Below, piece after piece: positions 6,136 to 34,140 of a stretch of DNA of 64,000 bases. Both the position numbers and the translations under genes were made by a program. The notes under the pieces are model-generated. The model did not search any database and had not been told where the DNA came from. It saw only the letters and a program-made list of their open reading frames with translations. This stretch comes from Microcaecilia unicolor (Eukaryota): NCBI RefSeq assembly GCF_901765095.1, contig NW_021963017.1, forward strand, positions 110,253 through 174,252, read 5' to 3'. The stretch's first letter is position 1. Every line of letters begins with the position of its first letter.

Positions 6136-6949
6136 CACTGATCTAAACAAAAAAAAAGGTAGAAAATAATGTTTTTGCACACGATTTTAATATATGAATG
6201 TGCAGCACATCTGATGTCTTCGTATTTTGCACTGTATAGGACGACATGCAATTATGCTTCTATTTCTACAGTGTGGCACTGTATGCAGAGCTTGGCTTCT
6301 TGAGGTTCCCAGCTCAGTTTTTGTTTGCACGTTTCTATTTCTAATTAAGGTCCTTTACTTTGTATTTGGCAAGCATCTGTCTGAGGTTATATGCAACTGA
6401 GGTAAAGAATTCTGCTACCACTGTTTGTTTTGTGTAAGGAGTTATAGCAGTTTAGTTTGCCCTGTTTTCTTAAGAAGCGCTTTGGTGTTCTAGGGACCAG
6501 TGTAATATGCGCTATGCTGCCTTTTCATGGGCTCTCTAATCTACTGCAGGGGTGGAGCAAATGTGTGGGTGGGTGGGTGGTGGGTGAGGGGAAGTCCTTG
6601 CGGATCATTCTTCCCTCAAAGGCAGTCCTACACTTTGCATATGAATACTGGCATTTTTTTTGTTCTTTACAACTCAAGTTGGAAAAAATTATGAAAATGG
6701 GGTTCAAGAATATTCATTCTTCTGTGGGCAATATAAATCTCAGAAAATGGAATGGGACGAAACACCGCAATGGGAAAAAGAATAAAAGACATATCAATTT
6801 GAAAAATGGGCCAGATCAGACCAGGGGTTCAAGGGAAAGAAACCCCTCAGAAACTGGCCCAATGCATTTCTATGGGAGAAGCAGTTCCATTTTCTGCCGT
6901 TAGAAACTTACATACAGTGAATCATAGAAGTTAGGGAATTCCTCCTTTT

Positions 6950-7260
6950 AAACTGCCTCCACCTCCTCCCCCCCCCCCCCCAACAAAAGAAAACAAAACC
7001 CAAACTACCCCTTCCCACACTTGTCCCACCACTCAAGCTGGTCTCACCCCCAAAAAATTACCCTACCACTTAGAGAACCAACACACATATAAATACACAT
7101 ACACACAAACAATCATGCAAGCACAGACACACCACATACAACCATTAATTCGCACATACACAAACACGTCCATATACACACAGAACATGTACAGACATAC
7201 CAGCCCACACAGAAAGCAGAAAATCATACAAAAGCAAAGATTACATGCACATACACAAAT
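6950..7260. repeat. Low-complexity tract: C21 homopolymer, then a CA/ACACA-rich imperfect microsatellite.
   Basis: ccccccccccccccaacaaaag... followed by acacatataaatacacatacacacaaacaatc... Confidence 0.7.
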
Positions 7261-7289
7261 ACAAAGACTTCAGGAATAATTCCATGAGG

Positions 7290-7850
7290 TATGCTCGGCA
7301 TGCTTTTCCCTGCTCAAGCCATTGGTGAGGCACAACTTGGGAGTACTTTGTGTTCAATTTTGGAAGCTGTAGCTTGCTAAGGATATGAAAATATTTGAAA
7401 CGGTTCAGAGGAAAGTGACAAAATATGGGGTTTGCATCAAAGAGGTATGAGAAGGCATTTGAAAACCTGAGTATATATCCACTAGAAAAAAAATAGTAGG
7501 GACAGGAAAGACATGCATTAATTTAAAACATGATACAGATATTTAACTACTTGAAAGATATTAATATACAAACAAATCTTTTCCAGAGACAGGGAAGCAG
7601 AAAAACTAAAGGATATGAATTGAGGTTGCAGGGTGATACACTTTAGACTAAAATCAAGAAATACTTTTTCCTCAGAGGGTGGTGGACACCTGAAATATCC
7701 TCCCAGTGGAGGTAGTGGAGACAAAAAAAAAAGGGACAGAATTCAAAATGTGTGGGATGAACACAGAGTATCCCTAAATAGAAGGGGGAAGGTATCAAAA
7801 CAAAACTTAAATGACCTCATGGCTGTTAATGTATTATGATGGGCAGGACT
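7290..7850 (+). mobile_element. CR1-clade LINE 3' fragment (degenerate ORF2 C-terminus; the FSSEGGGHLKYPPSGGSGDK segment corresponds to KLWN.LP..VV.A.S...FKKGLD).
   Basis: Collinear with the 3' end of the element at 3060-3520 (LEYCVQFW-like, YEERL..L..LE.R). Confidence 0.55.
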
Positions 7851-7889
7851 GGTGCTTTAACAGCAACTCCAGCACTGCAGAAAAAAGGC

Positions 7890-8050
7890 CAGTGCCAGGC
7901 AGACTTCTACGGTCTGCGTCCCACTTCAGGCACAGGCAGCTCCTTGTGACTCTGGGCAAGTCACTTAACCCTCCATTGCCCCATGTAAGCCGCATTGAGT
8001 CTGCCATGAGTGGGAAAGTGCGGGGTACAAATATTAAAAAAAAAAAAAAG
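7890..8050 (+). mobile_element. tRNA-derived MIR/CORE-type SINE with an A-rich tail (8033-8049).
   Basis: Core ctctgggcaagtcacttaaccctc. A related copy at 51425-51570 has a tRNA-like head (gggagtggagtagttgtttaatggttagagc...ttcaaatc). Confidence 0.5.
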
Positions 8051-8311
8051 ACAGATCAAAATCAAGTATATGTATTTTACACCACATTCATAATTGTTGG
8101 GAGTGCAGGTGCTATGTGACTCAATAGGAGAGAGGAAGACATCTTAAAGCTGAACTTAGCAAGTAATATGGTTAGTTAAACCATGAATTGATAATGAATG
8201 TGACTGTTGGGCAGACTAGATAAAACCTGCAGGTCTTTACCTGCCATCATCTACTATGTTACTTGTGTTCCATTAAAAGGCACTGTGTACACATATGCTA
8301 ACATCAGTTAC

Positions 8312-8444
8312 CTGAGAGTTTCCAATGCTTGCTCTCTCTCTTCACGAAGTTTTGCCAATGAGGCATTTTCTATCTTAAATCTTTCAATTTCCGTTTCTAA
8401 CTCAACCAACTTCTTCTTCAAAAGCTGGGACCGAAAAGTGTCTC
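8312..8444 (-). CDS. CENPJ: CENPJ coiled-coil exon (phase 1 in, phase 2 out): (G)[43 protein letters not shown](R).
   Basis: Acceptor gtgtgtttacag|GAGACAC and donor CTCTCAG|gtaactgatg. Phase fits the 1600-nt exon. Matches human [42 protein letters not shown]. Confidence 0.75.
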
Positions 8445-8499
8445 CTGTAAACACACCATAAAACTTTTAGTTATTCAACGTTCTGAAGAAAAGTATGAT

Positions 8500-8645
8500 C
8501 CACAATCCAGGAGAGTGTTTCCCAAGTCCAGGCCTGCCTCTATCATATCCAAATCTCTTTCATGAATATTCATTGTGGATATCCTGAAAACCTGACTGGC
8601 AAGCAGTACTCCAGGACCGGACTTGGGAAACGCTGATCTAGGAAA
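8500..8645. repeat. MITE copy (partial), same family as 5935-6135.
   Basis: Shares ...catgaatattcattgtggatatcctgaaaacctgactggcaag...gacttgggaaac. Confidence 0.55.
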
Positions 8646-8819
8646 AAAATACTCCAAAAAACAATGTATTTCTCTTTCAGCAATTAAAATAATCAAAACT
8701 AAAAATGCTAAAGCTTACACAGAAACAGAGAAGACAGCAGATAAAAGATTTCATGACCTATCCAGTCTGCCCATCCATACTATTTGCTATCCCTTCCTCT
8801 CCCTTAGAGATCCTATATC

Positions 8820-9010
8820 ATTGATTCCCAAACCAGTCCTAGGAGAACCCCAGCCAGTCAGGTTTTCTGGACAGCCACAATGAATATACATAAGAGAAAC
8901 CTGTATGCAGTGGAAGCACTGCATGCAAATTTCGCTCATGAATATTCATTGCAAATATCTTGAGAACCTGACTGGCTAGGATTCCATCAGGGCATGTTTG
9001 GGAGCCACTA
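8820..9010. repeat. MITE copy, same family.
   Basis: cagccagtcaggttttctggacagccacaatgaatatacat...catgaatattcattgcaaatatcttgagaacctgactggc. Confidence 0.55.
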
Positions 9011-9394
9011 TCCTACGTACTTGCCCCAAGCTTGCTTGAATTCAGATACAGTCTGTCTCCACCACCTCCACTGAGAAACTGTTCCACAAATTCACTACCC
9101 TTTCCATAAAGAAGTATTTCCTCAGGTTACTCCCTATTCCCTTTCACCTTCATCCTATGCCTTCTCATTCCAGAACTTCTTTTCCTCCTGTGCATTTATG
9201 CCATGGGGGCATTTAAATAGCTCTATCATAACTAAAAACTAACCTGTTTAAAAAGGCATATCCCACAGATCCAACTTAAATGCCTAATCTCTGCAACACA
9301 ACCAAACTACGGCACATAATGGACATAACACAACTCTTCTGTTCTCCGATTCCCTAATGTGGCTGTGCCACATGAACTTGATCTTACCACAACA

Positions 9395-9540
9395 TCACCC
9401 TGTATTTGTTAACACCGGAGCCTGCAAAGGCCTCTCCGGTATTATGTAAGCCACATTGAGCCTACAAATAGGTGGGGAAATGTGGGATACAAATGTAACA
9501 AATGTAACAAACAAATAAATAAATAAAATAAATAACTCCC
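9395..9540 (+). repeat. SINE 3' tail fragment (gtaagccacattgagcctac...gggaaatgtgggatacaaat) followed by an (AAAT)n microsatellite.
   Basis: Same tail as 7985-8030. The reverse complement is present at 34085-34150. Confidence 0.4.
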
Positions 9541-10199
9541 CTCTCCCGCCTTTCTTCCAGAGTATACATATTGAGATCTTGAAGTTCGTCTCCTTACGCT
9601 TTATGACAAAGACCATTGACTATCTTAGCAGCCCTCTCTACAGACTCTATCCTATGTGTATCTTTTTGAAGGTGCAGTCTCCAGAACTTTACACAGTAGT
9701 TATAGTTAATTAAAATTTGCTATACCACCTCCACTAACTAGTAGATGAAGGCAGTTTACAATCTATAAACAAAAATCATGGAAAAAAAAAAACTAAAGAC
9801 TTATACAGGAGAAATATCCCCGTTTCCCTGCTGGACATTCCTCTCCCTATCCATCCAAACATCTTTCTGGCTTCTGCCATCACCTTTCCCTTCAAACTTC
9901 TACATGCCTTGGCACCAGATTATCTACATCCACACTTTATATTCAGCTATGCTTTGAGAACAAGATGTACTAGTACTGTTACTCTTTTCCATCATAAAAA
10001 GGTAAAAAGAGATTACATCTCTTTGAATTAGGGTTGGCATTTCAAGCAGCAAGATTATGGACTGTGATTTCACCTATATTTAAATCTTCTCAGTCCTATA
10101 TTCTTTTTAGGAAAAATTTGAAAACCCTCTTGTTTCAGAAATATGTATCTCATGCTAATTGCTGATCTTATTTCTTTTTTCTTAATAATTGAAATTATT

Positions 10200-10700
10200 A
10201 TTATGCCCCTTCTTCCCAGTTAAATGAAACTGGCTTCTTAAAAAATTGTAACCCGCTTAGAACTGCAAGGTAATAACGGGATAGAAAACCGATTTACCAT
10301 TACCATCATCAGACAGGATCACCCCTAAGTCCTGCTCTTCTTCCATGCAAAAAAGTACTTTACCTCCTAAACTGTACCACTCCTTCAGGTTTTTGTAGCC
10401 TAAATACATGACTCTGCATTTTGTATCAAAATATCTTAGTTGCCAAATTCTAGACCAACCTACAAGCTTTGCTAGATCTCTTCTCTTGTTATCTACATCA
10501 TCAGGTCTGTTTACACTGTGCCAAATTTTGGTTATCATCCACAAACAGGTAAACCTTGCCAGACAGCCCTTTCACAATATTGGACCAAGAACGAAAAGGA
10601 ACATTATCAGTGTACTCCATTTAGCACTACCCTTCGCCACCATCCACTCACCAGTTTCTAACCCAGCCATTCACTTTAAGGCCCAAATCAAGGGAACTTA
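10200..10700 (-). mobile_element. CR1-clade RT fragment (LAKLVGWSRIWQLRYFDTKCRVMYLGYKN...DLGVILSDD).
   Basis: Track ORF 10257-10544(-) matches the CR1 RT C-terminal region (W.M.FN..KCKV.H.G..N..Y...G..L...E.E.DLGV). Confidence 0.6.
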
Positions 10701-10714
10701 ATTTACAGACATCG

Positions 10715-10915
10715 CCTATACCAGTGTTTCCCAAGTCCAGTTCTGGAGTACCCCTTGCCAATCAGGTTTTCAGGATATCCACAATAAATATGCATGAAAG
10801 ATTTGTATATAATGGAGGCCGTGTATGCAAATCAAGTTCATGCATATTCATTGTGGATATCCTGAAAACCTGACTGGCAAGGGGTACTCTAGGACTGGAC
10901 TTGGGAAAACACTGG
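10715..10915. repeat. MITE copy, the most intact, with both terminal inverted repeats (CAGTGTTTCCCAAGTCCAG / CTGGACTTGGGAAAACACTG).
   Basis: Perfect-looking palindrome around the cattgtggatatcctgaaaacctgactggcaagggg core. Confidence 0.65.
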
Positions 10916-11194
10916 CCTATACAGAACTGTGTCAAAGGCTTTGATATAATCTAAGTACACCACGTCAAGCATACTCTCTCTGATTAAAATCATAACTTAC
11001 TGCACAAAAGGATTTTAAAATGACAAAACAAAATGAGATTTTAGAAACAGACATCCTAGCAAAATAAGAATTCTTTTCATGGTCTACTAAATGAAGATCA
11101 CTAAGCTAAAAACCACATTCTGTCTCAGCCATGTGGCAGATAACCAAGTGTAAGTTTAGAAGAAATGAGTGTTTCAATCAACTAGTACCTAGGT

Positions 11195-11350
11195 CTTCAC
11201 TCCTAGTCCTTGAGGGCTGCTGAGTTAGGTTTTCAGGATAACCCTGAGGAATATGAATGAGACAAACTCCCTCTTCTGTATACAAATTGCTATTGCATAT
11301 TAATTAGGGATATCCTGAAAACCTGACCTCTTGGCAGTCCTTGAGGAATG
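11195..11350. repeat. MITE copy (diverged), same family.
   Basis: gttttcaggataaccctgaggaatatgaatga ... ggatatcctgaaaacctgac. Confidence 0.45.
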
Positions 11351-11530
11351 GGAGCAAAGATCAAGTATCTAGTATTTCACTTATAAGATACTGTGGGTAG
11401 ATAAAATGTGATAAAAATCCAGTCTACAATACCTTGCTGTTTACAGAAGCTATTCTGCATTTAAGGTGAATCACAATCATGACAACAAATATCACAAAAT
11501 AAAACTATTTATATGATATTTATGTTTTAC

Positions 11531-13130
11531 CTTTTGTTTCTTCTTGTCCTGGTCTGAATCTAGTATCTTGTACCATATGCGAGTCACATTTCTGTTTAGG
11601 CTTTAGTGCAGGAAACAGTTTCATCATTAGATCAGATGTAAGAGGACTACTTGTAATGCTATCCATCCTTTCTTGAGGTTGTTCATCTTTCTTTATCGAA
11701 GCAACCTTCCTTTTTATTACTTTATCTGGGATAGATGTTCCATTTTGTGCTTTGTCTTTACTAGTGTAGATCTCTGTTACAAGAAGCTGCTCATTCTCTT
11801 CAAGGTCAGCCCAGGTTCTGTCATCATCAAATCCAGCATCATTTCCATTTAAAATGGATGTGCTGGAGTTAAGTATAGCAGCTTTTTTTTCACTTTTGTT
11901 TTCTGACATGCTGAAATCCTCATTATTGTAATCTTCTTGGTCTGATAAGTCAAGATCCTGGTCCCTGCTTTTACACTCTTTACTAATATTTTTGGAAGGT
12001 ACTTGACAATCATAGTTGTTTGGGTTATCTTCCCTATTGGTAAAAAGTAACTCCTCTGTGTTGTATTTTTCATTTATTACAGTGGTATCAAGGTCATCTT
12101 CAGAGTTAGAAGTTAACACACTATTTCTCTCATTTGCTTTTGTATCCAACTTACCACTTTTTAATGATGGGTTGTCCGTGCAAGATGCTTGAAATAACTT
12201 ATCACTTGAATTATGACATTGTTCATTCAGTGTACTACTAGATGTCTTAAAATCAGGGTTTGATCTTGTTATATCATTGTCAGCTTTGTTTGCTTGTGTG
12301 GCATGCTCTCCCTGTTTAGTTTTGCTATCGGTAGCTACAGAATTCAATAGACTTGCATGATGATGCTGCTGTCCTAATTTAACAGGAGTAGAAGACATTC
12401 GTCGACCTTTATTAATTTGCTGATCTTGAGCCAATAGTTTAAATACAAATGAGGAATTACTAGAGAAGGATACGTCTTCCGCAGCCTGTTCGAAGAGCAG
12501 AAATTCATCTAATTCCAGGCTCTCTTTTTCCTTTTCTTTTTCCCATGTTTCAGATCTCTTCTGGAATGAAAGCTCAAAAGAATATTCTGGGTTTTTTGAA
12601 GGCACATTTGTAGAATACATGGATGTCAACACTGTAGGTGTCAGAAGCTTTTCAACTCCATCCAAATTTTTTCTTAGCCTGCTGTCAACATCAAATACCT
12701 GCCTTGCATGTTCCATATCATCTTTGTTCGTTTCTAGCTTGCTGCTTATTTCTGATCGAAGAGAATTTCTTAATTGTCCATCAAGTTTATTCTCCGACAG
12801 CTCATGTATTGTGAGTGGAGAGGGATTCTTTGTATTTATGTTTTTAAGCACCATTATCTTCTGAGTAGATATAGCAGGACTGTTTTTTGGTTTAACTATC
12901 TGATTAAAAATTGTAACTACATTTTCAGAAAGCTGTTCCTTGCTTACAGGTGTACTTTTCCTCTGTAACTGCGGTCTCTCCATTTTTGCTGCATTTTTGT
13001 CCTCAGTTCTTTGTTGAGTCACCGCTTTGCTTTTTGATAATTTAGATTTAGCATCAGTAAACCTAGCTAGGCCAGCTCCACGTTTCAAAAAAGGTCTCTT
13101 CACCACAGGTTTAACTATTGGTTCCAGGCT
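11531..13130 (-). CDS. CENPJ: CENPJ large central exon, 1600 nt (phase 0 in, phase 1 out). Begins SLEPIVKPVVKRPFLKRGAGLARF (PN2-3/tubulin-binding region motif). Contains the ETWEKEKEKESLELDEFLLFEQAAEDVSFSSNSSFVFKLL and DDDRTWADLEENEQ blocks and ends ...RPGQEETK(G).
   Basis: 528-codon open frame (track ORF 11520-13106, which starts at a GTG). Acceptor gattttag|AGCCTGG at 13130 and donor ACAAAAG|gtaaaaca after 11531. Several blocks are near-identical to human CENPJ exon 7. Confidence 0.85.
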
Positions 13131-13744
13131 CTAAAATCAAATCATGACGTAAAGATTATATTAGATCATTTAATCAGTTCATATAAGGACTATATTTTCA
13201 TTAATATATAAATCAAAATAGGATATAATTTCTAACTCATTTTCCTTTCACAAAACATAAGATTATATAATGGAATCTAGCTAAACACCATGATTAAACA
13301 TTACTACTGCTACAATAGTAGTGATTCCTGGAAAAATCAATAGATTAAGTACTACTATACTTTTTCCTCTCTTCTTGAATTTCATTTTAGAAGATTCATT
13401 CAGTCCTTTTCATATCTCAACTGGCACTTAAGACTTCTACAACATAACATCATTACCACTAAAAGCAGAACTTCCCAAATTGTGGGTCATGACCCCATAC
13501 TCACATTTGGGGTCACAACTTAGGCAGGCCCTCCATAAGAAATCACTGGTCTACACCACCAGTAGGTCATAGCTACAGAAACATTCATATGCACTGTCAT
13601 AGTGTCAGAGAGATAATTTTTGTACATCCTGCCCAAAGTGGTCAGGGATATGCAGCCCTCAAATTTTTCTTTTTAGTATTTTATTTCATTATATAAATTA
13701 ATTTTATATGCATTAAACTGAATTACATGCATAAAAGAAGTGTC

Positions 13745-14400
13745 ACCAGGAGAACATCTTATACCCTGTATACTACTACTACTAATAGCATTTGTATAGC
13801 GCTACCAGACTCACGCAGCGCTGAACACTTGACATAGAGAGACAGTCCCTGCTCAAAGAGCTTACAATCTAGGTAGAACAGATAGACAAGACATAGAACG
13901 GGCAAAGGAATTAATGGGTAAAGAGGAGGAGGGCAAATGAGTAGTGGTTAGGAGCCAAAGGCAGTAGTGAAAAGGTGGGCTTTCAGCATAGATTTAAAAA
14001 CAGGAAGAGATGGAGCTAGACGTATGGGTTCGGGAAGACGGTTCCAGGCATAAGGTGCTGCGAGACAAAAGGAATGAAGTCTGGAGCTAGCGGTGGAGGA
14101 GAAGGGGGACGACAAGAAGATTTGTTCAGAGAGCGGAGTTCAAGGGAAGGAATGTGGGGAGAAACAAGAGAGGAGAGGTAGTGAGGAGTCATAGAGTGGA
14201 TGCATTTAAAGGTCAGTAAGAGGAGTTTGAACTGTATACGGAAGCGGACAGGGAGCCAGTGAAGTGATTTGAGGAGTGGACTAGTGTGGGCATAACGATT
14301 CTGGCGGAAAATAAGTCGTGCTGCAGAATTCTGGACAGATTGAAGAGGAGAGAGATATACTCCAGGATATAGCAATCTCGTGGGAAACCCATATTGCTGT
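13745..14400 (-). mobile_element. L2-clade LINE 3' end (ORF2 C-terminal block ...LQSVQNSAARLIFRQNR.AHTSPLLKSLHWLPVRFRIQFK...), 3'UTR and a (TAC/TAG)n tail at ~13745-13765.
   Basis: Track ORF 14016-14375(-). The same AARLI...HWLP block follows the RT at 34344-34661(-). The tail motif agcgctgcgt...agcgcta is shared with the 3' end of 1-3835. Confidence 0.5.
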
Positions 14401-14489: not shown

Positions 14490-15118
14490 GGCCCAATTCT
14501 TCCAAGGAGGTTGCAGAACAGTGAAGATGTCTAAAGGAAAGAAAATTATCAGGTAACACATAATTTCTCCTTCCCTTAGTATCTAGCTATACTGTTCTGC
14601 ATATGTGGAATATTCTGAAACATGTCTACTGGGCAGGAGAAGACAAGGCTTCCCGAATGATGGCTCTGCAAACGTCCAAACAGTCCTTGGCCAATCTGTA
14701 CAGTCTGACAAAGAAATGGAGTTGCCACTTGACAATCTATTCTGGAGCCACAGCCCAGGCCTTTACCAAGGATGTGGTCTGAGCATGTGTGGAGTGGACC
14801 TTCAGGTCCCAAGGCACTGGATGATTCTTGCAAATGTAGGCACTCTCAATAGCCACCTTAATCCACCTTGCAATGGATGCCTTAGAGGCCACCTGGGCCC
14901 CTCCTAGGGCCATGAAAAAGAACAAAGACGTGATCAGAGAGGCGAAAATCGTTTCCTTCAGGTACCAGAGCAGCGTACTCTGGATGTCCAGCTTTTGGAG
15001 TCTCCTGTCACAAAGGGCAAGCAAACTTTCTGATTCAAATGGAATAGAGAACAACCAAGGTGTCGAAGGGCAGAAAACAGGAGCACCCCTCCATGGAACG
15101 TCACAGAAATCAACACGA
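14490..15118 (-). mobile_element. DIRS-like family B 3' end: tyrosine-recombinase C-terminus (...SKASIARWIKVAIESAY...LKVHSTHAQ) plus terminal hairpin repeats (ttgcagaacagtg / cactgttctgcat, aaagaaaattatcaggtaa). Interrupted at 15118/15119; continues at 18417.
   Basis: Track ORF 14737-15132(-) is homologous to 52102-52320(-). The terminal block recurs at 62500-62590 and, inverted, at 60697-60740 and 62150-62195. Confidence 0.55.
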
Positions 15119-18100
15119 GCAGAGGGTGACAAACTGACTCCAAGCCTGGGACATGATATGCAAAAATCCTTTATTCAGTAGCACCAGATGAATGACCAGA
15201 CATGGGTTCATGTTTCGACAGATGCAACTGCCTGTTTCAGAGGTTAGAACAACTGTGTATAAAAGTGACATGACCATAAGAACAAATGTATTATAAAACT
15301 TATTACATTGAAAAGCAAAAACTCATTAAAGGTGCAATTAAAAATTGCAAAATTACAATAAAAACTGCAATAAGCAGCAGTATTCAATTAAAAACATATA
15401 AGTATTAAAAAGTGTACTGGATAAACTATTCCGTCTCATTAAATTGTGTCTAAACACTTATAAAAGATGAAGGAGATATATATGAAACAGCACATGGAAA
15501 GGTATCCAGCATAAAAGGAATACACCTCTTCGGCTGTTAAAATACCCCTTGATGATGGCAAGGGAGACAACTTCCTTAATGTCTTGCCGTAGAGAAGAAG
15601 TGGTATCCAAGTTCAGAACTATGAAGTATTGTCTGTCAGCTGTCTTTCAATTTCCGCCATAAAATCACTGCAATTTTGTATCACGATGCCTCCACCATTA
15701 TCTGCTGGCTTGATAACTATTTCACTATTTATGGCCAAGTCTCAAACGGCTGCGTCTTAACTCTGTAAAGATTATAAAAACGCTGTTTCTTTTTCTTCTC
15801 TATCATGGAGGCTTTGCATTGGATACTTATACTGAATGCATTAATCAGGGGATCCATGGAGCCAGGCGGGATCCACTGTGAGGGATTTTTGACCACAAAG
15901 ATATCAGTTTGGGATGTAGGGTGGTTCTGAGAAGGCCTGGATGATCTATAATTTGCACGTGAAACAAACAGATCTACTCTGGTCTGAAATGCGTTGTATC
16001 TATCTGATTAGGTGGTAGGCATGGAAGAGATACCCTTACATAAAACATCAATTTGCATGTCTGTTAAGACTGACATCTGATAAATTGAAGATAGGACTAT
16101 CTACCTCCAGTTGTTCTTCCTCTGATGTTGGTAATTGGGATATTGAGGGATCCTGCCTCGCAGTCCTCTGGGGTAGCCTCTTCCTCTCCCTCTGGGTGGA
16201 TAAGAGTGATGAACTCGTGATTGGGAGTGGAAGCGTAGTCGTATTTGGTGTATGTCTGGTAGACCTGTCCCAGATCTTCTCTAAAAAAATAATGGGATGG
16301 ACCTAGAGAAGGAGAGGATACAGGGCCATCATGAAATGGAGGTTTACCCAAAGAGGTTATCTGCCACACTGTATCCAGGATGGATTTGAAAAGGCAAGCC
16401 ATAAACCCAGAAGTTATCTACTCACAAACAGAACAGAAAATTTCCAGATGTTGTACGTACACTGAGGTACTCCCAACATTGCAACACAGGTCCATAAAAT
16501 TATAAGGAAAAATTGGCATATCCTTGAGGGCCACAAATGTTTTAAAAACAAAAATCTGGTTGTAGCCTATTCCAGAGGAAGGAATTTAAAGGAGAAGATT
16601 GTTCCCTCCGCCTTGCCAGAATTTGCTGTGGATCCATTTGCAGACCCTATATTTGGGACACAGATTGAGTGGAAGGTGCAGCATCTGTCCACATGCACTG
16701 GAAATCTAGACCTTCACTCATCCAACAACAGGGAACGTCTACACCCTTAAACACTCCTCTAATTGTCACACAACACAAGTTCTCTATATCATCACATGCC
16801 CTTGTAATCTTCTGTATGTAGGGGAAACTAAAAGAGCCATCAAAACCTGCATTATAGAACATAAAAGTTGTATTAGCCTTTGTGTTATCGGTGCACACTT
16901 GTAGTACACTGGTATACACAGAACCACACAATCCAGGATTTGAAGTTTTTTTGTTCTCAAGCTTCACCACAAACCCTGGAGGGAACAGAATATTGACAAG
17001 CACCTCCTACAGGAGGAAAAAAGAACCATTTTTCACATGTGAACCCTGGCACCGCAGAGTCTCAGTTCAGAAATATATTATAGACCCTTTCTTTATTTGT
17101 GCATTCACATTGGTTTTTATCTGTGTGTCTTATCTACTTAAAATTTATGTATTTGGTGATGACCTTTTTATCTATTGTTCTGTATTTCAACCCTATTTGC
17201 ATCATAATCACTTATTTTACCTTTTATTTTAACCAATTTTTATTGTACTTTAACCAGTCATTTTGTCCCTTTTAACCGGGTATATTTTTAACCCACTCTC
17301 TTTAACATAGCACTCATCCATGTTCAGCATCTTATTATTATTCATGTACTCATCTTTATTCATGAACCCTTAAATCATTTAAATTGTCATCAGGCTGTAA
17401 TCTTGTTCACTCTTCAATGTGGCGGTGTTTGAAGTGCTGTTTCAAGACTACATACCAGTAAGAATCTATTCTTTTTTTTTTTTTTTTAGAAATTTTTCAA
17501 TGTATTTGCTTGCTGCAGTAACACACACCCTTTTTACAGTCCTTTCTGGCGCCTGCTTGTTATAGTGCCAGGAGCTTTTATTGTCCGGTTCATGCTAACT
17601 GGTTATGTTTGACTGGTTTAGTTTTTAACCATTCTATCCTTACCCGGTTATTTTTAACCGGTTTCATTTTACTGGCTTTAATTTAACCTGTTTCTTAGCA
17701 CTTAATATAGATTTTGGGTTTTTAGCATTTTAAACTGTGATTCATGGTTCTTTCTCCCTTTTATATCTGCAATTTGCTTTTTTAGAGTATACAGTATAGA
17801 CTTTGTATGCAGGATATTTCATTCATCGACTGCACCAGGTCATATACCATTACCTTACACAGAGGTAGGAGTGTATTTTAAGGATTCTTTTTACTTGCAT
17901 GTCTGTCCCTTTTATCAGTCCATTTCATAGTAGTTATACTCTCACACCAATGTTTTTATTACATATGTTTCTATTTTATATTACATATTTATTTATAAAC
18001 AAGACTTCTGCAACATCAAGTGCATTTATTTTATGTTGGATGGTCTCCACTCTGCTGTTTCATCTCACAAGCTTTGTCATACAAGGTTATTTCCTTTTAT

Positions 18101-18416
18101 GCTGGATAGCTTCCCATGTGCTGTTTCATATATAGCTCCTTTATCTTTTATGAGTATTCAGACACAGTTTAATGACAATATAATGAATAGTTTATGCAGT
18201 CTTTTTAATACTTGCATGTTTTTAGTTTAATAGTGTTACTTATTGCAATCTTTTAATTGTAATTTTGCAATCTTTAATTGCACCTTTAATGAGTTTTTGC
18301 TTTCAATGTAATACATTTATAATAAAAATCCATGCCGGGTCATTCATGTGGTGCTACTGAATAAAGGATTTTTGCATATCATCTCCCAGGACTGGAGTCA
18401 GTTTGTCACCCTCTGC
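15119..18416. mobile_element. Unclassified ~3.3-kb element bounded by ~400-bp terminal inverted repeats (15119-15540 and 18040-18416, ~85% identical, one ~70-bp indel). Inserted into the DIRS-B recombinase gene. Internal ORFs (16097-16402, 16647-17003, minus strand) have no recognised domain.
   Basis: Reverse complement of 15119-15140 = 18395-18416 (gagtcagtttgtcaccctctgc); arm similarity continues ~400 bp inward. DIRS-B homology resumes exactly outside both arms. Confidence 0.5.
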
Positions 18417-19527
18417 GCACATGGAATGGAGACAACACCTTAGGAAGAAAGGAAGGAACCTTGTAAAGGGAAACTAAGTCCTCCATAAAGTCGAGATAAG
18501 GGTCACGACATGACAGACCCTGCAGCTCAGAACTTTTTGTGCCGAGGTAACTGTGACCAAAAAAACAGTCTTGAGAGTAAGGTCCTTAATAGAGGTCAAC
18601 TGCACAGGCTCAAACAGAGCCTCCGCAAGTACTCAGAAAACCAGGTTGAGGTCCTCACAAGGGACGTGCAGGGGGCGGGTAGGGGGCGCAAATGCGCCAC
18701 ACCTTTCATGAAAAGGGCCACCTTGCCATGCAAGGCCAGGGAGGTGCCCTTCACATTACCCTGAAGAAAGACCAGCTACTTGGACCCTCAGGGAGCCCAA
18801 TACCCTGACAGAAGGTAGGGATGTGGAAGACTTCTGAGAGTGCAGCAGAGTACAAACTACTGTGGGAGAAAAATCACACTTCTTTAAGCACTTCCTCTCA
18901 ATGGCCAGACCATAAACGAGAAGGGGTCCATATCTTCCATTTCTACTAGAACTTGCCAGAGAAGGTCCCAGCCTCTAGGCAATAAGAGATTCACTTTTGA
19001 ACAGGCACACGAGGACTGTGTGCCAAGGTCTGCGAGGCCAATCTGGGGCTACAAGAAAGATTACACGAGGATGACATGCAATCCTGTGTAAAAGACAGCC
19101 TATCAGAGATCATGGAAGGAACACATGCAGAGGTTCCACTTGTGGCCAAGGCTGGACTAGGGCATCTATCCCCCGAGAGGCTGGCTCCCTTCAATGCTTG
19201 AAGAAATGTCCCACTTTCACACTGGATCTGGAAGCCATCAGATTGACCAACAGGGGGTCCCACTAGTTCAGAATGAGCTGAAAGCTCAGCTGCCCCAGCT
19301 CCCATTCTCCCAGATCCAGGAGACAGCAACTGAGAAAGTCCACGTGCACATGAGGGTCTGCAGGTGTTTCTTTGCCCACTGACAAAGGTATGCTGCTTCC
19401 AAGGCTACTGCCTGACTTCTGGTGCCGCCATACTTGTTGATATAAGCCACGGCTATGGCAATGTCAGACATCAACCTGACCGCCTTTCCCCAAAGGAGCA
19501 GCTGGAACTCTAGAAGGACCAGATAAA

Positions 19528-19546
19528 CCCCCCCCCCCCCCCCCCC
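19528..19546. repeat. C19 homopolymer. Similar runs: C13 24865-24877, C23 29864-29886 (followed by T19), C16 51150-51165, G23 55294-55316, G18 55410-55427.
   Basis: Direct observation. Confidence 0.9.
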
Positions 19547-20499
19547 AGGTCACCTCCTGCTGAGTCCAGGTCCCCTGCACCATATGACCTAGGCAATGAG
19601 CTCCCCAGTCAAGGAGATTCACATATTCATATCCATGGTGACAAGCACCCATAGTGGGGGATCCAGCAGCACCCGTCTCAGGAGGTGAACTGGGATGTCC
19701 CCCACCAGACCAGACCGATTTTTGGCTTGGGCGAAAGTGTCTGAGGAAAGTCCTGTGAGAAGAGAGCCCACAAAAACAACGGAGCCTGCCACAAGAGCCA
19801 CATTTGAGCATCGCACACAGCACCACCTCCAGCAACACAGCCATGGAAACCAGGAGCTGCAATTGGTCCCATACTGAGGGGACCATGAGCTCATATAATC
19901 TGCGCTACTGCGCTCAAAGCTTCTCTGCCCTGTCCTCCAGGAAGGACACCATCCCCTGGGCAGAGTCAAAGCGGACTCCCAGATATTCCAGGACCGGGGA
20001 GGGAACCAGATGCCTCAAATCACAACCCAGCCCAGGTCTCCAACCAAGAGATGACCTGAAAGGTGGACAGCCTGATCTCTTTGGCTGAATCTGCCTGAAT
20101 CAGCCAGTTGTCCAGTAAAGATGTACTGTGATCCCCTGGTGATGTAGCTAAAGCAGCAACTACCACCATAACATTGGAGAAGGTGTGGGGGGCTTTGACC
20201 AGACCAAAGGGCAAGGCCCGAATGTCACGGCCTCACCGTGCTTGGCTCAGTTCCGATGCCTGACATCAGGGTCAGGTCCCGTGCATTCTTTGATGCTTCC
20301 TGCCTCTCTGCCCCTTGTTGACACACCAGTGCAGGTGCTCCTGGCATGGCTCCTGCAGGTCTCCTCCTCACTAATCATGCTGCACATGTGTGGGACTGTT
20401 TTTGACCAGCCATGGGTGGGAAGGGTCAGATGACGTCAGACGCCCAGAGATCTATTTCAAAGGACAGCTGACTCAGTTCCTTGCCTTGCAACAGGTCTG

Positions 20500-20745
20500 C
20501 TTCGGCAACTGACAGTGGTCTTCAGTTTGTGGTTTCCAGTCTTCAGTTCCAGAATCCATCCACAGCTTCCAGAGTCCATTACTGGCTTCCAGAAACCAAG
20601 GCTCTAGTGTCTGCTTCCAGCCTCCTGTGTCCAGCATACAATCCCAGGCCTCTGGGTCAGCCTCCAGCTGCCAGCGTCTTGTCTTCAGCGTCAGATGCCG
20701 GCTTCTAGCCTCCCAGGTCACTGCCAGTTCACAGCTTCCCATCTA
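20500..20745. repeat. Degenerate tandem repeat (GCTTCCAG-containing ~20-25-bp units).
   Basis: ...cagcttccagagtccattactggcttccagaaaccaagg...gcttccagcctcctgtgtccagc... Confidence 0.5.
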
Positions 20746-21249
20746 CCTTGGCCAGGGTGTATATTCCTTCCTATACTAGGCCTGTAATATGGCACTGCTA
20801 GCCCTCAGTTTTCCAGGCTTCCTGTTCTCAGCTTATTTTTATTTTCTTCCTTCAGCTGCATGTAAGCTACAGTGCTTTCTCAGTAAATGGAAAGTACATG
20901 TTACATGTCACGGTGACAGGAGGAACTGAGGCTATGCGGCCCATATATGGCAGATACAATTGGATATAACCTTGGTGCTGATGAGAGACTGAGGACCCTC
21001 CAAAGGAGTTGTTCCTGTCAGGTAGAAGGACACCAGGTGTTTCATACTACTTATTTGTTAGCTGGTTTTTACAGATAAGGAATTAGCCAATTGCCACAAA
21101 GTGTGCATGTGCACACAAGAGGAGAGAATGATACAATGGAGGAAATTGCCATTTTTGTATATTACTATATTGTGTGATGGAAGGAAACAGGAAGATCCAT
21201 ATATGATCACAAGTTAGTTTAGGAGAAATCACATGATTTAGGAGAAACA

Positions 21250-24200
21250 AAACTTACAACAATATATATGTGATGGATAAGAAAGTTTTTGCTGAGCAGT
21301 TTTGTTATTCAGTCTGTGTGTCTGGCTACAGTATGACAACCTGCTCCAGAGAGAACAATTATTTTGTATTGGCTTAGTGAGATACCAATAAAGATTTTTT
21401 TCTGGTTGCGCCTATATCTAAGTCTGATTGTCTCTCTTATTCCAGCCTCTAAGGCTGAAGTGTTTTCACCAGGGGCAATGGACAGGATTACACAAGGGTG
21501 ATTCGCCTACGGAAGACTGAACAGTCTGCCCCAACCATGGTCCAAGGGCTCAGCAAAACCTGTATGTGACACCAAAACTGCAAATAGCACCCAAGAATAC
21601 AGAAGCAAAGATAATGTTTGTGATGGGCTATGATGGGAATATGCAGATAGGCCTTAGCAAGATCCTAGGAGGTCTAGAACTTTCCCACACCCCTGAGGGA
21701 GCAAAAACATAACAACCCGTATGTACCTCGTGTAGCCACCTGAGAAGCGCTGCAACGTTGTATAGCCTAAGATCAGACAGATTGACTCCCCCCTCGCTAC
21801 CTGACGGGTGAGCTTGCTATACCCAATCCTAGCCCTGCGACCTCCCCAAATAAAGGACGATATCACTCCCCTATAGGCCCCCTCATCTTTACTATGAATC
21901 CACAGTGGCATCATTTGCAGAGCATAAAGGATCTTAGGGAACAACACCATTTTAACGAGTGCCACACGTCCTAAAAACGAAACAGGGAGATCCTTCCATT
22001 GTCGACATAGCTGTTTAATGGCCTCTAACTTGTCGCAGACATTTTTCTTGTATATATAGGTAAAGTCTAAATGCAGGTATACTCCCAGGTATTTCATAGG
22101 TCCCATTGTCAAGGCCAGAGGGAAGTCGGAGCAGCTCTTGCAGACACAATTAGCGGACAGCAACATTGCCTCAGACTTATCAAAATTAAACCTCAAACTG
22201 GAGAAAAATCCAAATTGTTGGATAAGATTTATCAAAATGGGTATCCCCCTTGTCGCCTGCCCCAGGAATATTAACATATCATCTGCAAAAAGATTGATTT
22301 TGTATTCACACTTCTCTACTCTTATTCCTGCCAAAGGCTCCAAGGCCAAAACAAAAACCATAGGCGACAGAGGGCACCCCTGTCTCGTACCCCTTTGCAG
22401 CGCAAACGACAGGGACAAAGCATTATTTATCAAAATTTGTGCTGTGGGAATCCTGTATAAAGCCAGGATCCCGTGCAGAAACTCCCCATATATGCCAAAC
22501 TGTGGCAAAACCCAAAAAAGATGGTCCCATAAAATTTTATCGAATGCTTTTTCTGCATCTAGGCTAACAATGATATCTCCCGGCTTACCCCCCCTTTGCT
22601 TGAATTGCACTCAACGCTCTTAGAATGTTAGTAGAGGCATACCTCCCTGGGATGAAGCCCAATTGGTCCTCATGCACTAGAATGGGAAGCACCTTTCCCA
22701 ACCGGGCAGCCATAATGCTAGCGAACAGTTTTATGTCCTGATTTAATAAGGAGATGGGCTGGTAGAAACACAGCAGCACCCGATCGCGGCCTGGTTTAGG
22801 CAGAACTATTATAGATGCATGTGTCATGGCACCCGTGGACTGCCCTTCTGTGCACAATGCTTCGCATACTTCGCTAAATGGCCCTGCTATCTGACCTCCC
22901 AGAATCTTGTAAAATTCAGGCCCCGGAGCTTTTGCTAGCATAAGCTTCTTTATAGCTTCTTATATTTCAAGCCCCTGAACAGACACATTCAAGATATCTC
23001 GGTGTTCTTGCGTCAGCGAGGGGAGCCTAAGGCCCTGAAAGAATGCCTCCCGTTTGTTCAAGTCACAACTCCCCGTCATACAGAGATTTATAAAAATCCA
23101 CAAACGCCTTTTGTAACTCCTCTTCCCTAGACAGTGTCTGCCCCGTTACAGATTTGATACAATTTATTAGTTGCTTAGCAGGTCTGTTTCGAACCAGGGT
23201 GGCCAGCAATCTATCCGTCTTATTCCCCCATCTGTGGAGTCGGTATTTGTATAACTGAATGTCCCTCATCGCCCGTTTATTCAAAGTGTCATTAATCTTA
23301 GTTTTTAACTCTCTGAAGGTGTTCCTAGCCGCTTCATCTCCCCACGCTGCCAATGTCCTAGCATCTTGGAGTAGGCGGAACTGGGTAAGAAGTTCCCCAT
23401 CTCCTTTTTTTCGAGTTCTGGCCATGTATTCTATAATTTGTCCTCTCATCACTGCCTTCCCTGCTTCCCACAAGGCGATCGGGTCAGATACAGATGACTT
23501 GTTATCTGTTAGGTAGTGTCCCCATTCCTTTTGGAGAAATTCCTTGAATTCTGGCTCTTGGTACAAGGTAGGATTCATGCGCCAACCCAATCTACTCCTA
23601 ACCCTCGAGAGGCTTATATCCACCCAAATCAGGCTATGATCAGAGACCACTCTCGCCTCAATCTCCGCAGAACGACTAACAGAGAAGAGAGTTTGTGATA
23701 GTAAAATATAATCTAACCTAGCCTGACATTTATGTACATGTGAGTAGAAAGTGTATTCTCTGTCATCCGGGTGTAGCACCCTCCAAACGTCCACTAGCCC
23801 CAGATCTCTTTGGAGAAGCCCTATTCCCCCTGTCCTCCATTCCCTTAGGCTGTGCTTTCGATGGATTATAGTCAACTAGTGGATCTGCCGTTATATTAAA
23901 ATCCCCTCCCACAACCAGTTGATATTCTGGCAGTGGTGCCAGAGCAGCCAACAGCTGAGAGTAGAATTTCTGGGAGTAGACGTTCGGAGCATATACCGAA
24001 CACAAAGCTACCCAGTCCCTGAATACTACCCGCCCAAATCACAAATCTTCCCTCAGGGTCCTGAACAATTTTGTGGCAGGTACTATCTAACCCTTTACTC
24101 ACGAGGATAGCTACTCCCCTTTGTCTACTGTTGTACGAAGAGTAGGCAATCTCACCCACCCAACCCTGTTTCAACTTAAGATGTTCTGGTGAAGACAAAT

Positions 24201-32302: not shown

Positions 32303-34140
32303 CTATAGAGAATCCGAGGCCTTTTCTTCTCTAAAAATGAGAGGTGGTAGCCGTGTTAGTCCACTCTTAAGGTTATCAACAGAAATCAAACAAAATAAAA
32401 CATGGAAAAGAAAATAAGATGATACCTTTTTTATTAGACATAACTTAATACAGTTCTTGATTAGCTTTCGAAGGTTGCCCTTCTTCGTCAGATCAGAAAT
32501 AAGCAAATGTGGTAGCAGATAGTACATATAAGTGAAACATCCAAGCATTACTTTGACAGTCTGGGAGGGTGGGGGTGGGTAGGAGGTATGCATGGGGACA
32601 TCAAAGCATTTCATTGATATTTTAACAGGATGGGCGTGGGTAGGTGAGAGGAGGGTGATAAACAGAGAAATACAATTATATGGTTTATAATGGGCTAGAA
32701 AACCCAGATCTTTGTTAAGTCCTGTCTGTTGGGTGTCAAAATATTCAATCATTCTGACTTCAAAAGTCTTACGTTCCTGTATTGTTTTAAAGTTACCTTT
32801 CAGGATTCTAACTATTAAATCACTGGTGCAGTGTCCTGGTCTTGTAAAATGCTGGCCCACCGGGGTGGGAACCTGACTGGCACCGGCTATCTTCATGTGA
32901 TGTTTGTGCAGACTGAATCTTGTCTTATGCATCTGGCCTGTTTCTCCAATATAGCATCCTTCATTACATTTTTTACACTGAATGATATATACCACATTGG
33001 AAGATGAGCATGTGAAAGATTCCTTTATGTTGAATATTTTTTCTTTGTGAATGACAGTGGGGTCCTGTGAAATGTTTTGGCATAGCTTGCAGCTGGATGT
33101 ATTACAGGGAAATGTGCCCTTCTTTTCCTTTTCAGTCTGTGTTGGGAGTTTACTTCTGATTAGCTTGTGTTTTAAGTTGGGTGGCTGTCGGAAGGCAAGC
33201 ACTGGTGGGGATGGGAATATCTCTTTCAGTAATTCATCTTCCTGGAGTAGAGGCTGTAGGTCTCTTATGATTTTCCTCAGTTTCTCCAGCTCTGGGTTGT
33301 ATGTCACTTCAAGGGGGATTTTGTCTGTGGCTTTTTTTTTTCTTTGTACTGTAGCAGACTTTCCCTGGGTGTTTTGAGGGAGGAGGCAATATTCTTGGAG
33401 ATTACTTTTGGGGTTGTAGCCTGTTTGAAGGATGCAGTCAGGGTTTCAAGGTGTCTGTCTCTATCCCCTGGGTCCGAGCAGATACGGTGGTATCTTGTGG
33501 CTTGGCTGTAAATAATGGCTCTTTTTGTATGTGAAGGATGGAAGCTGGAGTTGTGGAGGTAGCTGCATCTGTCTGTGGGTTTCTTGTATATAGATGTTTG
33601 TATACATCCATCACTGATTGAGACTGTGGTGTCCAAAAAATTGACTTTTTCTGGGAAGTAGTCAATTTTGAATCTGATTGTTGGATGGTATGTATTGAAG
33701 GAATAGTAAAATTGTTTCAGAGTTTCTTCCCCTTCCGTCCAAATCATAAAAATGTCATCGATGTACCAGTAGTGTTTTAGAGGTTTGGTCTGGCATGTAT
33801 TCAGAAATGTCTCTTCCAGCTCAGCCATAAAAAGGTTGGCATATTGGGGTGCTGTCCTGGTGCCCATCATTTGTAGATAGATATCATTCTTAAAGCGGAA
33901 GTAGTTGTGAGTTAAAATGAATTTGATTAATTTTGTAATAGTTTCTGGTGAGTATTGATGGTCCAGTGTGGATGTTTTTAGGAGTCTCCCACATGCAGCT
34001 ATGCCATCCGCATGTGGAATGTTGCTGTATAGTGATTCTACATCCATATTGATAACCTTCTCTAAAAAGAAATTCCCATAAGCGTTATATTTATTTGTTA
34101 CATTTGTATCCCACATTTTCCCACCTATTTGCAGGCTCAA
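32303..34140 (-). mobile_element. Penelope-like element, 5'-truncated. RT (33304-34140: MGTRTAPQYANLFM motif B, YIDDIF motif C) followed by a C-terminal GIY-YIG endonuclease (32303-33307: C-x-C zinc module, then NVVYIIQCKKCNEGCYIGETGQMHKTRFSLHKHH).
   Basis: Two long open frames of 278 and 334 aa (one frameshift apart) with PLE-specific RT and GIY-YIG signatures. Confidence 0.75.

Follow-up and report, generated by a model that had tools for sequence, protein, structure and literature searches.

An inverted-repeat block within a DIRS recombinase gene

Within a 64,000-nucleotide stretch of Microcaecilia unicolor DNA (hereafter the window), a block of ~3.3 kb (15119-18416), bounded by inverted arms of ~420 bp and ~377 bp with identical outer termini, interrupts a decayed DIRS-type element of the minus strand in its tyrosine-recombinase gene. 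It was unclear which kind of element this block represents and how it acquired its inverted arms. As described below, it is very likely a dead composite insertion of a Penelope-like retroelement (PLE) consisting of two partial copies arranged head-to-head and probably of the Neptune type. The features of the locus are as follows.

14490-15038, minus strand: left flank, with the recombinase C-terminal part (FHLNQ... to HSTH..., stop near 14740) and downstream DIRS sequence (tblastn, P0155 aa ~337-463 and P0158 aa 667-776 = 15038->14692)
15039-15118, minus strand: recombinase codons ~307-334 present a second time in decayed form, left member of a candidate long target site duplication (TSD) (alignment of P0155 with the left flank begins at aa 307)
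15119-15540, minus strand: left arm, best read as the 3'-terminal ~420 bp (3'UTR/pseudo-LTR end) of the minus PLE copy (inverted repeat with 18040-18416; immediately follows, in the sense direction, the PLE coding remnant on the minus strand)
15541-16200, minus strand: PLE N-terminal domain (NLS..KGxS..P and the PADNGGG 'DKG' motif; tblastn, P0116 aa 8-95 = 16070->15795 and aa 110-153 = 15753->15622, E=3.5e-16)
16201-16324, no strand: interval with the putative head-to-head joint of two PLE copies, placed only to this interval (minus coding last detectable at ~16203, plus coding first detectable at 16325)
16325-17093, plus strand: PLE C-terminal ~260 residues, comprising the thumb end (RGY), a linker with a C-x2-C remnant, and the GIY-YIG endonuclease, to the C-terminus (tblastn, HMMER)
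17094-18039, plus strand: unique 3'UTR/pseudo-LTR of the plus copy, AT-rich, with a T16 run at 17472-17487 and a 14-bp repeat at 17596-17663 (contiguous from the ORF end to the right arm; TRF)
18040-18416, plus strand: right arm, best read as the 3'-terminal ~377 bp of the plus, 5'-truncated PLE copy (inverted repeat with the left arm)
18417-18510, minus strand: right-hand member of the recombinase duplication (..CRDPYLDFMEDLVSLYKVPSFLPKVLSPFHV; tblastn and comparison of copies)
18511-21250, minus strand: right flank, with decayed DIRS RT, RNase H, (methyltransferase region), and recombinase N-terminal half (tblastn and Pfam of relatives; homology verified only to ~20217)

At the DNA level, the left flank is 71% identical to 62473-63010 of another DIRS-type copy in the window and the right flank corresponds to 63020-63200, the two being collinear. 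The flanks are also collinear with amphibian DIRS-type proteins (E down to 1e-58), with RT, RNase H, methyltransferase, and recombinase on one strand, which agrees with the proposal of an initial annotation that the insertion splits a single DIRS unit in its recombinase coding region. In the right flank, tblastn aligned P0154 aa 52-116 to 20217->20041 and aa 252-671 to 19622->18519, as well as P0153 aa 52-589. Pfam analysis of the flank relatives detected RVT_1, RT_RNaseH, Dam, Phage_int_SAM_1, and Phage_integrase in the correct order, several of them below Pfam cut-offs. The Phage_integrase match of P0153 covers residues 537-709 and the break falls at about residue 589. This DIRS copy is full of stops and frameshifts, so that the inactivation which the initial annotation ascribed to the insertion may have had another cause, and Pfam found nothing in conceptual translations of the flanks. 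With a ~3.3-kb block lying inside the recombinase coding region, the insertion is younger than the DIRS copy, as previously suggested, and the relative chronology of the locus is clean: DIRS first, PLE second.

The similarity of the inverted arms is far above chance. Their global alignment contains 306 matches and 29 mismatches; the arms noted earlier are real, with an identity of 91% in aligned columns. The segments 15119-15208 and 18327-18416 (inverted) are 92% identical (E=1.7e-31) and 15289-15520 and 18091-18324 (inverted) are 85% identical (E=1.7e-69). The two arms differ by an ~80-bp indel, 15209-15288 being missing from the right arm, which itself has an internal 66-bp duplication (18029-18129). 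The first 23 nt are common to both arms (GCAGAGGGTGACAAACTGACTCC), and no match to this terminus was found in the metagenome contigs scanned. Further copies of the family would be expected to terminate in ...GTTTGTCACCCTCTGC. The predicted RNA folding of the arm terminus is not unusually stable (z=+0.49), and no direct pseudo-LTR was detected in the block.

The block contains mirror-image PLE remnants

Intact PLE polyproteins from newt, axolotl, and fish aligned to the block in mirror image by tblastn, with the N-terminal domain on the minus strand and the C-terminal part on the plus strand. The minus-strand remnant (15541-16200) has many stops and frameshifts and ends ~10 residues short of the RT 'LPKIHK' motif. 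Its DKG motif aligns to PADKGG of five PLE proteins and the NLS..KGxS..P block aligns too. The plus-strand remnant was matched by P0116 aa 481-607 and 596-741 (E=1e-17) and by P0005 aa 369-623 (E=6e-20), and it also aligned with a second PLE in the window (E=1e-8). It encodes a GIY-YIG endonuclease with two Cys (CPC) between GIY and YIG, 16710-16901(+) reading ..VLYIITCPCNLLYVGETKRAIKTCIIEHKS... An exhaustive HMMER search with this 64-aa stop-free stretch as the query yielded 613 relatives at E<=1e-3; these carry RVT_1 together with GIY-YIG (PF01541), and the match is C-terminal in relatives of 600-800 aa. The relatives come from Lissotriton, Ambystoma, Xenopus, and teleosts. In alignment A1, the invariant columns are PAD.GG, RGY, C..C, and CPC.L.Y.G.T.R..EH, with a gap of ~290 columns across the RT. 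Residues ~200-480 of intact PLE proteins, which hold the RT core (LPKIHK ... YIDD), have no counterpart in the block. The loss of the core is explained by the 5' truncation of one copy (at about residue 481) and the internal deletion of the other. Therefore, the block belongs to the PLEs by descent, through homology on either side of the RT, and is a defective remnant rather than a functional element. Its class assignment depends upon the domains flanking the RT.

These results also explain the ORFs of the block. The two minus-strand ORFs reported initially (16097-16402 and 16647-17003) both exist, but the conclusion that the block lacks RT or nuclease motifs is wrong, as the strand opposite 16647-17003 encodes the PLE-type GIY-YIG endonuclease with its 613 relatives and the ORF itself is the antisense of this domain. 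The ORF at 16097-16402 spans the head-to-head joint, is partly antisense to PLE coding sequence, and had no match in an exact-protein look-up. Likewise, the element class is no longer unknown, given the PLE N-terminal domain on the minus strand left of 16070 and the GIY-YIG domain on the plus strand. Pfam gave no match in any of the six raw frames of the block. It was silent on both the block and the DIRS flanks because these copies are too decayed, and relatives were used instead. The region between the plus-strand ORF end and the right arm (17094-18039) resembles no other sequence in the window. As the coding remnants each point outward to their own arm, the arms are best read as two PLE 3' ends, and with PLE 3' ends at both of its outer ends, the unit therefore mimics a terminal inverted repeat (TIR) transposon.

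A recombinase segment is duplicated at the flanks

The initial annotation placed the end of DIRS homology at 15118 and its resumption at 18417. The splitting of one DIRS unit stands, but the two flanks do not simply join up, as each side of the block carries the same ~28 recombinase codons (~80-90 bp). The two flanks may conceivably derive from different DIRS copies, but among six copies of this segment, the extra one on the left is nearest to 18421-18510 (score 31 vs. 0-12; 1/2000 shuffles), the copy in the right flank. We also considered the left 80-bp segment as a PLE 'tail', which was rejected, as the segment has no similarity to the block and is significantly DIRS-like. The junctions themselves (ending in ...CAACACGA on the left and beginning with GCACATGG on the right) share no common short direct repeat, just as the annotation had reported no clean TSD. 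The flank duplication may be a long, decayed TSD. It should be noted that its copies are 80% identical with 28 gap columns vs. 91% for the arms, i.e., the duplication is much more decayed, which is awkward if both arose from one event. We lean slightly against the fuller proposal that the ~80-90-bp duplication is a genuine TSD and the locus an in vivo fossil of a PLE integration, with GIY-YIG nicks ~85 bp apart and reverse transcription primed from both.

A model for the composite and its rivals

For a head-to-head PLE composite, the plus copy (16325-18416) would be 5'-truncated and would keep the thumb end, the Cys linker, the GIY-YIG endonuclease, and a 1.3-kb 3'UTR, while the minus copy would run from ~16200 down to 15119, with its N-terminal domain joined to the terminal ~420 bp of the 3'UTR. 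The internal deletion of the minus copy (~2.6 kb) would have removed the RT core, the endonuclease, and most of the 3'UTR. We envision a single event in which the GIY-YIG nuclease would nick the DIRS recombinase gene and reverse transcription would start at the 3' end of the PLE RNA, primed on both target strands. The two cDNAs would then extend toward each other and be joined midway. One of them may have skipped template in a jump or may have derived from an RNA that was already deleted, and nicks ~80-90 bp apart would account for the duplicated recombinase segment. As a separate observation and a candidate microhomology, GGT.TATT.CCTTTTATG occurs on both sides around the deletion joint (~15527-15545).

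Parts of this model resemble known systems. In LINE-1 twin priming, cDNAs primed on opposite target strands meet midway to yield an inverted 5' segment. The meeting of two opposite-strand-primed cDNAs is shared with our model, whereas the second LINE-1 primer anneals internally, so that the inverted part does not have the 3' end of the element at its outer edge and no terminal inverted repeat forms; the outer ends of the block are the same 3' terminus. Penelope is, like the block, a GIY-YIG retroelement with inverted repeats of copy-specific size arising via an inverted partial copy, and partial copies and small deletions are common. In contrast, a Penelope unit usually encloses a partial tandem, with direct pseudo-LTRs and an ORF that is intact, while the block has no surviving RT and no visible direct pseudo-LTR, and its inverted repeat is held to ~420 bp by the internal deletion. 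The block displays PLE hallmarks in its 5' truncation and in terminal repeats derived from partial copies, namely its inverted arms. Head-to-head is the most frequent PLE arrangement (PMC3846280). The same study describes a derivative of Adineta vaga Pen2 that lies between inverted pLTRs and has undergone a microhomology-mediated deletion internally; like the block, it is a defective PLE with inverted terminal copies, in-frame stops, and an internal deletion. In A. vaga, the copies show TSDs of 8-10 bp or no TSD and pLTRs of ~200 bp (PMC3846280), as compared to arms of ~400 bp and an apparent duplication of ~80-90 bp at the block. A related locus (L001) has the same head-to-head topology in pristine form, with an inverted copy (3283-6173) adjoining a tandem array that ends at 14308 and inverted arms that are 100% identical.

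Could the locus have required two events, either independent PLE insertions in opposite orientation at one spot or one PLE whose structure was altered afterward when copies underwent inversion or deletion? The mirror structure would then arise in either case with no need for both-strand priming. Insertion of one PLE copy into another is known, the large internal deletion of the minus copy could be post-insertional, and the greater divergence of the flank duplication would fit parts that need not share an age. However, both outer ends are complete 3' termini abutting the same DIRS gene with no remnant of a first copy outside the second, a second insertion must have hit the 5' junction of the first exactly, and the single-unit inverted layout is the documented norm and is intact in L001. 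We consider this history improbable.

The remaining candidates are less probable still. A non-autonomous cut-and-paste DNA transposon with ~400-bp TIRs and captured PLE fragments, as the initial annotation implied, would accommodate the long inverted arms with identical termini that bound the unit, and no other class-defining enzyme is intact. Yet no transposase or DDE signal is present in any frame, six-frame Pfam being empty, and PLE sequence, in sense or antisense, explains the two ORFs. Mirror-image remnants facing the arms fit PLE 3'UTR ends and are not explained by random capture, and in place of a short TSD of fixed length there is a duplication of ~80-90 bp. We judge such a transposon very unlikely. 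Since DIRS1-type elements have inverted terminal repeats (PMC8557442) and the window holds many DIRS copies, one might also take the arms for DIRS repeats and the locus for a pair of DIRS fragments facing in opposite directions. No other part of the window contains the arm sequence, although at least four further DIRS copies are present there, as the annotation had remarked of the copies at 52 and 62 kb, and therefore the arms are not DIRS repeats. Furthermore, the flanks together make up a single RT-RNase H-recombinase unit, collinear and on the same strand, and the arms are contiguous with PLE rather than DIRS sequence, making this interpretation scarcely credible.

Family relatives and clade of the element

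In an indexed protein search, the frameshift-corrected PLE peptide had a single match (P0001), and a search with profile A1 gave 12 PLE proteins with a best identity of 36%, none of them from the host. No further copies of the arm family were retrieved by the protein searches or the metagenome-contig scan. Therefore, contiguity and mirror symmetry, rather than a consensus, are the grounds for assigning the arms to the 3' end of the element itself. The PLE of the block is probably a canonical one with a C-terminal endonuclease and of the Neptune type. Two Cys between GIY and YIG (CCHH) are a criterion for canonical EN+ PLEs (PMC8557442). The Neptune clade of fish and amphibians is described in PMC8557442, citing Arkhipova 2006, as canonical EN+ PLEs in which the endonuclease is C-terminal and the linker reads CX2-5CxxC. 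Both Neptune-clade PLEs and the block have an N-terminal DKG domain, CPC between GIY and YIG, and, in the block as a remnant, a linker Cys motif upstream of the nuclease, and the closest relatives of the block PLE are amphibian and teleost, as for this clade. In the linker, the relatives read GHFPCGSCSVC (C-x2-C-x2-C), while GHRLSGRCSIC in the window keeps C..C and has lost the first Cys. Unlike Neptune-clade PLEs, the block has no RT by which a phylogeny could place its clade, and no hammerhead was found in it. Its insertion site is not a (TA)n microsatellite, whereas the related L001 element sits in (TA)n. Canonical PLEs are said to carry a hammerhead ribozyme universally. Rfam gave no hammerhead match in the whole window at the gathering threshold or in the block at E<=10, nor any other credible family, and a core motif scan of both strands of the block found none, while the same scan recovered a hammerhead-like core beside the second PLE. 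The hammerhead of the block may have been lost by decay or may have been located in a part that was not retained.

Implications for PLE integration

What appeared to be a new TIR-bounded class is a well-documented inverted-copy PLE architecture and its value is mainly as a correction: the locus is ordinary, a defective member of a known PLE type. Such PLEs are often missed in annotation, whether automated or by eye, because they have lost the RT, encode the nuclease on the strand opposite the visible ORFs, and are too decayed in their frames for Pfam to score. The sole non-routine feature is the long, decayed flank duplication. TSD length variation is said to follow variable nick spacing, and in vitro work with a PLE protein has shown cleavage and extension of both target strands (PMC11167929). 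If the duplication is a true TSD, it would match this activity on both strands, which has so far been observed in vitro only, with an Anolis element, and would extend PLE TSD lengths well past those of the A. vaga copies. The locus is a further natural example that is consistent with both-strand priming in PLE integration.

Insertion of the block into a DIRS-type recombinase gene

The ~3.3-kb block at 15119-18416 is flanked by sequence whose minus-strand translation matches amphibian proteins, the best being Rhinatrema bivittatum LOC115085256 (E=1e-58), followed by relatives from Xenopus tropicalis and dendrobatid frogs. These relatives carry, in order, RVT_1, RT_RNaseH, a Dam-like methyltransferase, Phage_int_SAM_1, and Phage_integrase (several of these Pfam matches are under the Pfam cut-offs, yet collinear), which is the DIRS architecture. 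tblastn of the DIRS relatives was collinear, placing RT, RNase H, and the N-terminal recombinase half on the right flank (20217 to 18412, minus strand) and the C-terminal recombinase half, through the HSTH/R motif, on the left flank (15126 to 14692, minus strand). The break falls near residue 589 of the DIRS-type protein P0153, within its Phage_integrase match (537-709). The flanks are also collinear at the DNA level with the DIRS copy at 62473-63010/63020-63200. Therefore, the block interrupts the recombinase gene of a DIRS copy and is younger than the copy it interrupts, as the initial annotation had proposed. The split copy contains stops and frameshifts throughout and gave no direct Pfam match. 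At least four further DIRS-type copies are present, all on the minus strand (44355-46893, 52024-52565, 61163-61900, and 62380-63422), the one at 44.4-46.9 kb being the most complete (residues 1-717 of the relative P0154, RT through recombinase). This DIRS density, together with the best protein matches, indicates that the host is probably an amphibian, and it may be a caecilian.

Directly past the DIRS right end is a LINE-type RT ORF (21654-22610 and 22585-22941, both minus strand; RVT_1 E=2e-19), in whose region a spurious-looking short match to the P0154 N-terminus occurs at 21575-21700. Just left of the split copy, a 119-aa ORF (14016-14375, minus strand) has no Pfam match and presumably resembles the C-terminal tail of a CR1/L2-type LINE ORF2 (..LQSVQNSAARLI..LHWLPV..RIQFK..). 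A 528-aa ORF at 11520-13106 (minus strand) has the appearance of a large host exon. A weak match of its first residues to PF25779, the tubulin-binding region of CPAP, falls short of the cut-off (E=0.0024), suggesting that a CENPJ/CPAP-like gene lies beside the transposon nest.

The block is a defective Penelope-like element

Repeat finder and self-BLAST recovered the inverted arms at the coordinates first annotated (left 15119-15540, right 18040-18416), with 92% identity between 15119-15208 and 18327-18416 (E=1.7e-31) and 85% between 15289-15520 and 18091-18324 (E=1.7e-69). Global alignment of the arms gave 306 matches and 29 mismatches (91% in aligned columns), with ~80 bp (15209-15288) found in the left arm only; the right arm has a 66-bp internal duplication at 18029-18129. 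The first 23 nt of the two arms are identical (GCAGAGGGTGACAAACTGACTCC), and self-BLAST found no further arm sequence within the 64-kb window.

Pfam matched none of the raw six-frame translations of the block, so protein relatives were used for its classification; the empty scan agrees with the earlier observation that no transposase motif is recognisable. A nuclease motif had likewise been thought absent. However, the plus strand near 16760-16870, opposite the annotated minus-strand ORF 16647-17003, reads YIITCPCNLLYVGETKRAIKTCIIEHKS, a GIY-YIG core. In an exhaustive HMMER search, the stop-free 64-aa stretch 16710-16901 (plus strand) had 613 protein relatives at E<=1e-3 (best identity ~60%); in those of 600-800 aa the matching part is C-terminal, and the relatives carry RVT_1 and GIY-YIG. 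These Penelope-like element (PLE) relatives come from Lissotriton, Ambystoma, Xenopus laevis, Coilia, and Misgurnus. One PLE protein relative aligns to both strands of the block, through residues 137-230 on the minus strand (E=1e-9) and 568-638 on the plus strand (E=3e-6). tblastn of five PLE relatives against the window gave the following map, relative to the intact PLE polyprotein P0116.

PLE coding segments in the block
16070 to 15795, minus strand: N-terminal part, residues 8-95 (E=3.5e-16 with the next segment)
15753 to 15622, minus strand: N-terminal part, continued, residues 110-153
16325 to 16696, plus strand: C-terminal part, residues 481-607
16653 to 17093, plus strand: C-terminal part to the last residue, residues 596-741 (E=1e-17)

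The RT core (residues ~200-480 of the PLE relatives) had no tblastn match anywhere in the block. Accordingly, when the window PLE peptide is aligned with PLE proteins, it spans the N-terminal domain to ~10 residues before LPKIHK and restarts at the RGY motif; invariant columns include PAD.GG, RGY, C..C, and CPC.L.Y.G.T.R..EH. From the tblastn map, HMMER relatives, and alignment, the element, initially of unknown class, is a defective PLE. PLE nucleases are set apart by two Cys between GIY and YIG, while an additional CX2-5CxxC linker motif distinguishes Neptune and Nematis from Penelope/Poseidon (PMC8557442). The linker reads GHFPCGSCSVC in the relatives and GHRLSGRCSIC in the window copy, and by this Cys motif we take the element as probably Neptune-type. 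Both minus-strand ORFs of the initial annotation are present; the plus-strand nuclease map shows that 16647-17003 runs antisense to the nuclease domain, and 16097-16402 straddles the joint of two PLE copies.

The block's C-terminal fragment also matches the C-terminal ORF of a second PLE in the window (131 residues, E=1e-8). This 5'-truncated element (32303-34140, minus strand; tblastn to PLE proteins, E down to 4e-51) belongs to a different family and has no DNA similarity to the block.

ORFs of the second PLE
33304-34140, minus strand: RT (RVT_1)
32303-33307, minus strand: linker and GIY-YIG, VVYIIQCKKCNEGCYIGETG

A putative hammerhead-like core at 32466-32491 (minus strand; CUGACGA-A-GAAGG-GCAA-CCUUC-GAAA, extra A at the stem II junction) lies ~200 bp past its coding end, the expected place for PLE ribozymes; it had no Rfam match at E<=10 and a fold z-score of -0.64.

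Arrangement of the two PLE copies

Both coding remnants face outward, with an arm next in sense on each strand, and they join head-to-head between 16203 and 16325.

Anatomy of the block
16325-18416, plus strand: plus copy, ~260 C-terminal codons followed by 1.32 kb of 3'UTR
18040-18416, plus strand: right arm, the final ~377 bp of that 3'UTR
~16200 down to 15119, minus strand: minus copy, N-terminal domain followed immediately by the final ~420 bp of 3'UTR (left arm)

Thus, the arms are best read as the 3' ends of two PLE copies in opposite orientation rather than as TIRs to which a transposase binds. This assignment is based upon contiguity and mirror symmetry, because protein searches with window peptides or profile and a metagenome contig scan for the 23-nt terminus retrieved no other copy of the family. 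Missing from the minus copy are the RT core, nuclease, and ~950 bp of 3'UTR, a gap of ~2.6 kb left either by an internal deletion or by a template skip. Short similar sequences (GGT.TATT.CCTTTTATG) at both parental positions of its deletion joint (~15527-15545) suggest possible microhomology, as read from the locus itself. The plus-copy 3'UTR includes a T16 run (17472-17487) and a degenerate 14-bp repeat (TAACCGGTTATTTT, 4.6 copies, 17596-17663). The block contains no direct pseudo-LTR (pLTR), and Rfam and a motif scan detected no hammerhead ribozyme in it; the hammerhead is reportedly universal in canonical PLEs, and here it has likely decayed or gone with the upstream pLTR, which is missing.

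The block shows the inverted-copy structure characteristic of PLEs. One study (PMC3846280) reports head-to-head as the arrangement seen most often, describes a derivative in which inverted pLTRs flank an internal deletion mediated by microhomology, and gives target-site duplications (TSDs) of 8-10 bp or none for the Adineta vaga copies. In another (PMC11167929), a purified PLE protein cut and extended the two target strands, in contrast to R2 or L1. A related locus (ENA ERZ25069865, ctg4679), encoding a protein (P0162) 28% identical to the window peptide, has the same topology, but is pristine. Its inverted copy (3283-6173, 2,891 bp) abuts head-to-head a plus-strand tandem array (period 3,239 bp, end at 14308), and the unit 3283-14308 lies within a (TA)n tract. 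Inverted repeats of 2.9 kb, 100% identical to each other, bound this unit, and the outer end of each is a PLE 3' end. On one side only, ~85 bp of unique sequence separates the right PLE end from (TA)n, which could be a one-sided extension or displaced target.

Inverted arms might otherwise indicate a TIR DNA transposon, but this is disfavored: no transposase signal was found, the PLE remnants mirror each other and point outward, and no short TSD is present. That the arms are instead DIRS terminal repeats is excluded, since none of the window's other DIRS copies has them, as initially noted for those at 52 and 62 kb, and since they run directly into PLE sequence. Opposed copies could also arise from two PLE events at separate times or by rearrangement afterwards, but the second event would have to land exactly on the 5' junction of the first, and a single unit of documented architecture is more economical.

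A possible long target-site duplication

As first annotated, no clean short TSD is visible (...CAACACGA|GCAGAGG... vs ...CCTCTGC|GCACATGG...). In tblastn, however, the alignment of the DIRS-type protein P0155 reaches residue ~334 (..FLPKV..FH) on the right flank and begins at residue 307 on the left flank, so ~28 codons occur twice (15039-15118 and 18421-18510); in the window's other DIRS copies the segment occurs a single time. When six copies of the segment were compared, the right-flank piece was the nearest to the left extra piece (score 31 vs 0-12; 80% identity in aligned columns, 28 gap columns), a score reached by 1/2000 shuffles. The left piece was also considered as a PLE "tail", which was rejected because it has no similarity to the PLE itself.

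The simplest reading, which we hold at about even odds or slightly better, is a long TSD, as two target nicks ~80-90 bp apart would duplicate the recombinase segment. In the literature, PLE TSD length is said to depend on how far apart the two nicks lie. Against a TSD of the same age as the arms, the duplicate is far more decayed (80% and 28 gap columns vs 91%). The flank has a higher GC and CpG content than the arms. Gene conversion can homogenize inverted arms, and either this or the flank composition may account for the unequal decay. Overall, the feature is real but no new class, being a defective PLE that lies within the recombinase gene of a DIRS element. The sole mildly unusual point of the locus is its apparent target duplication of ~80-90 bp.
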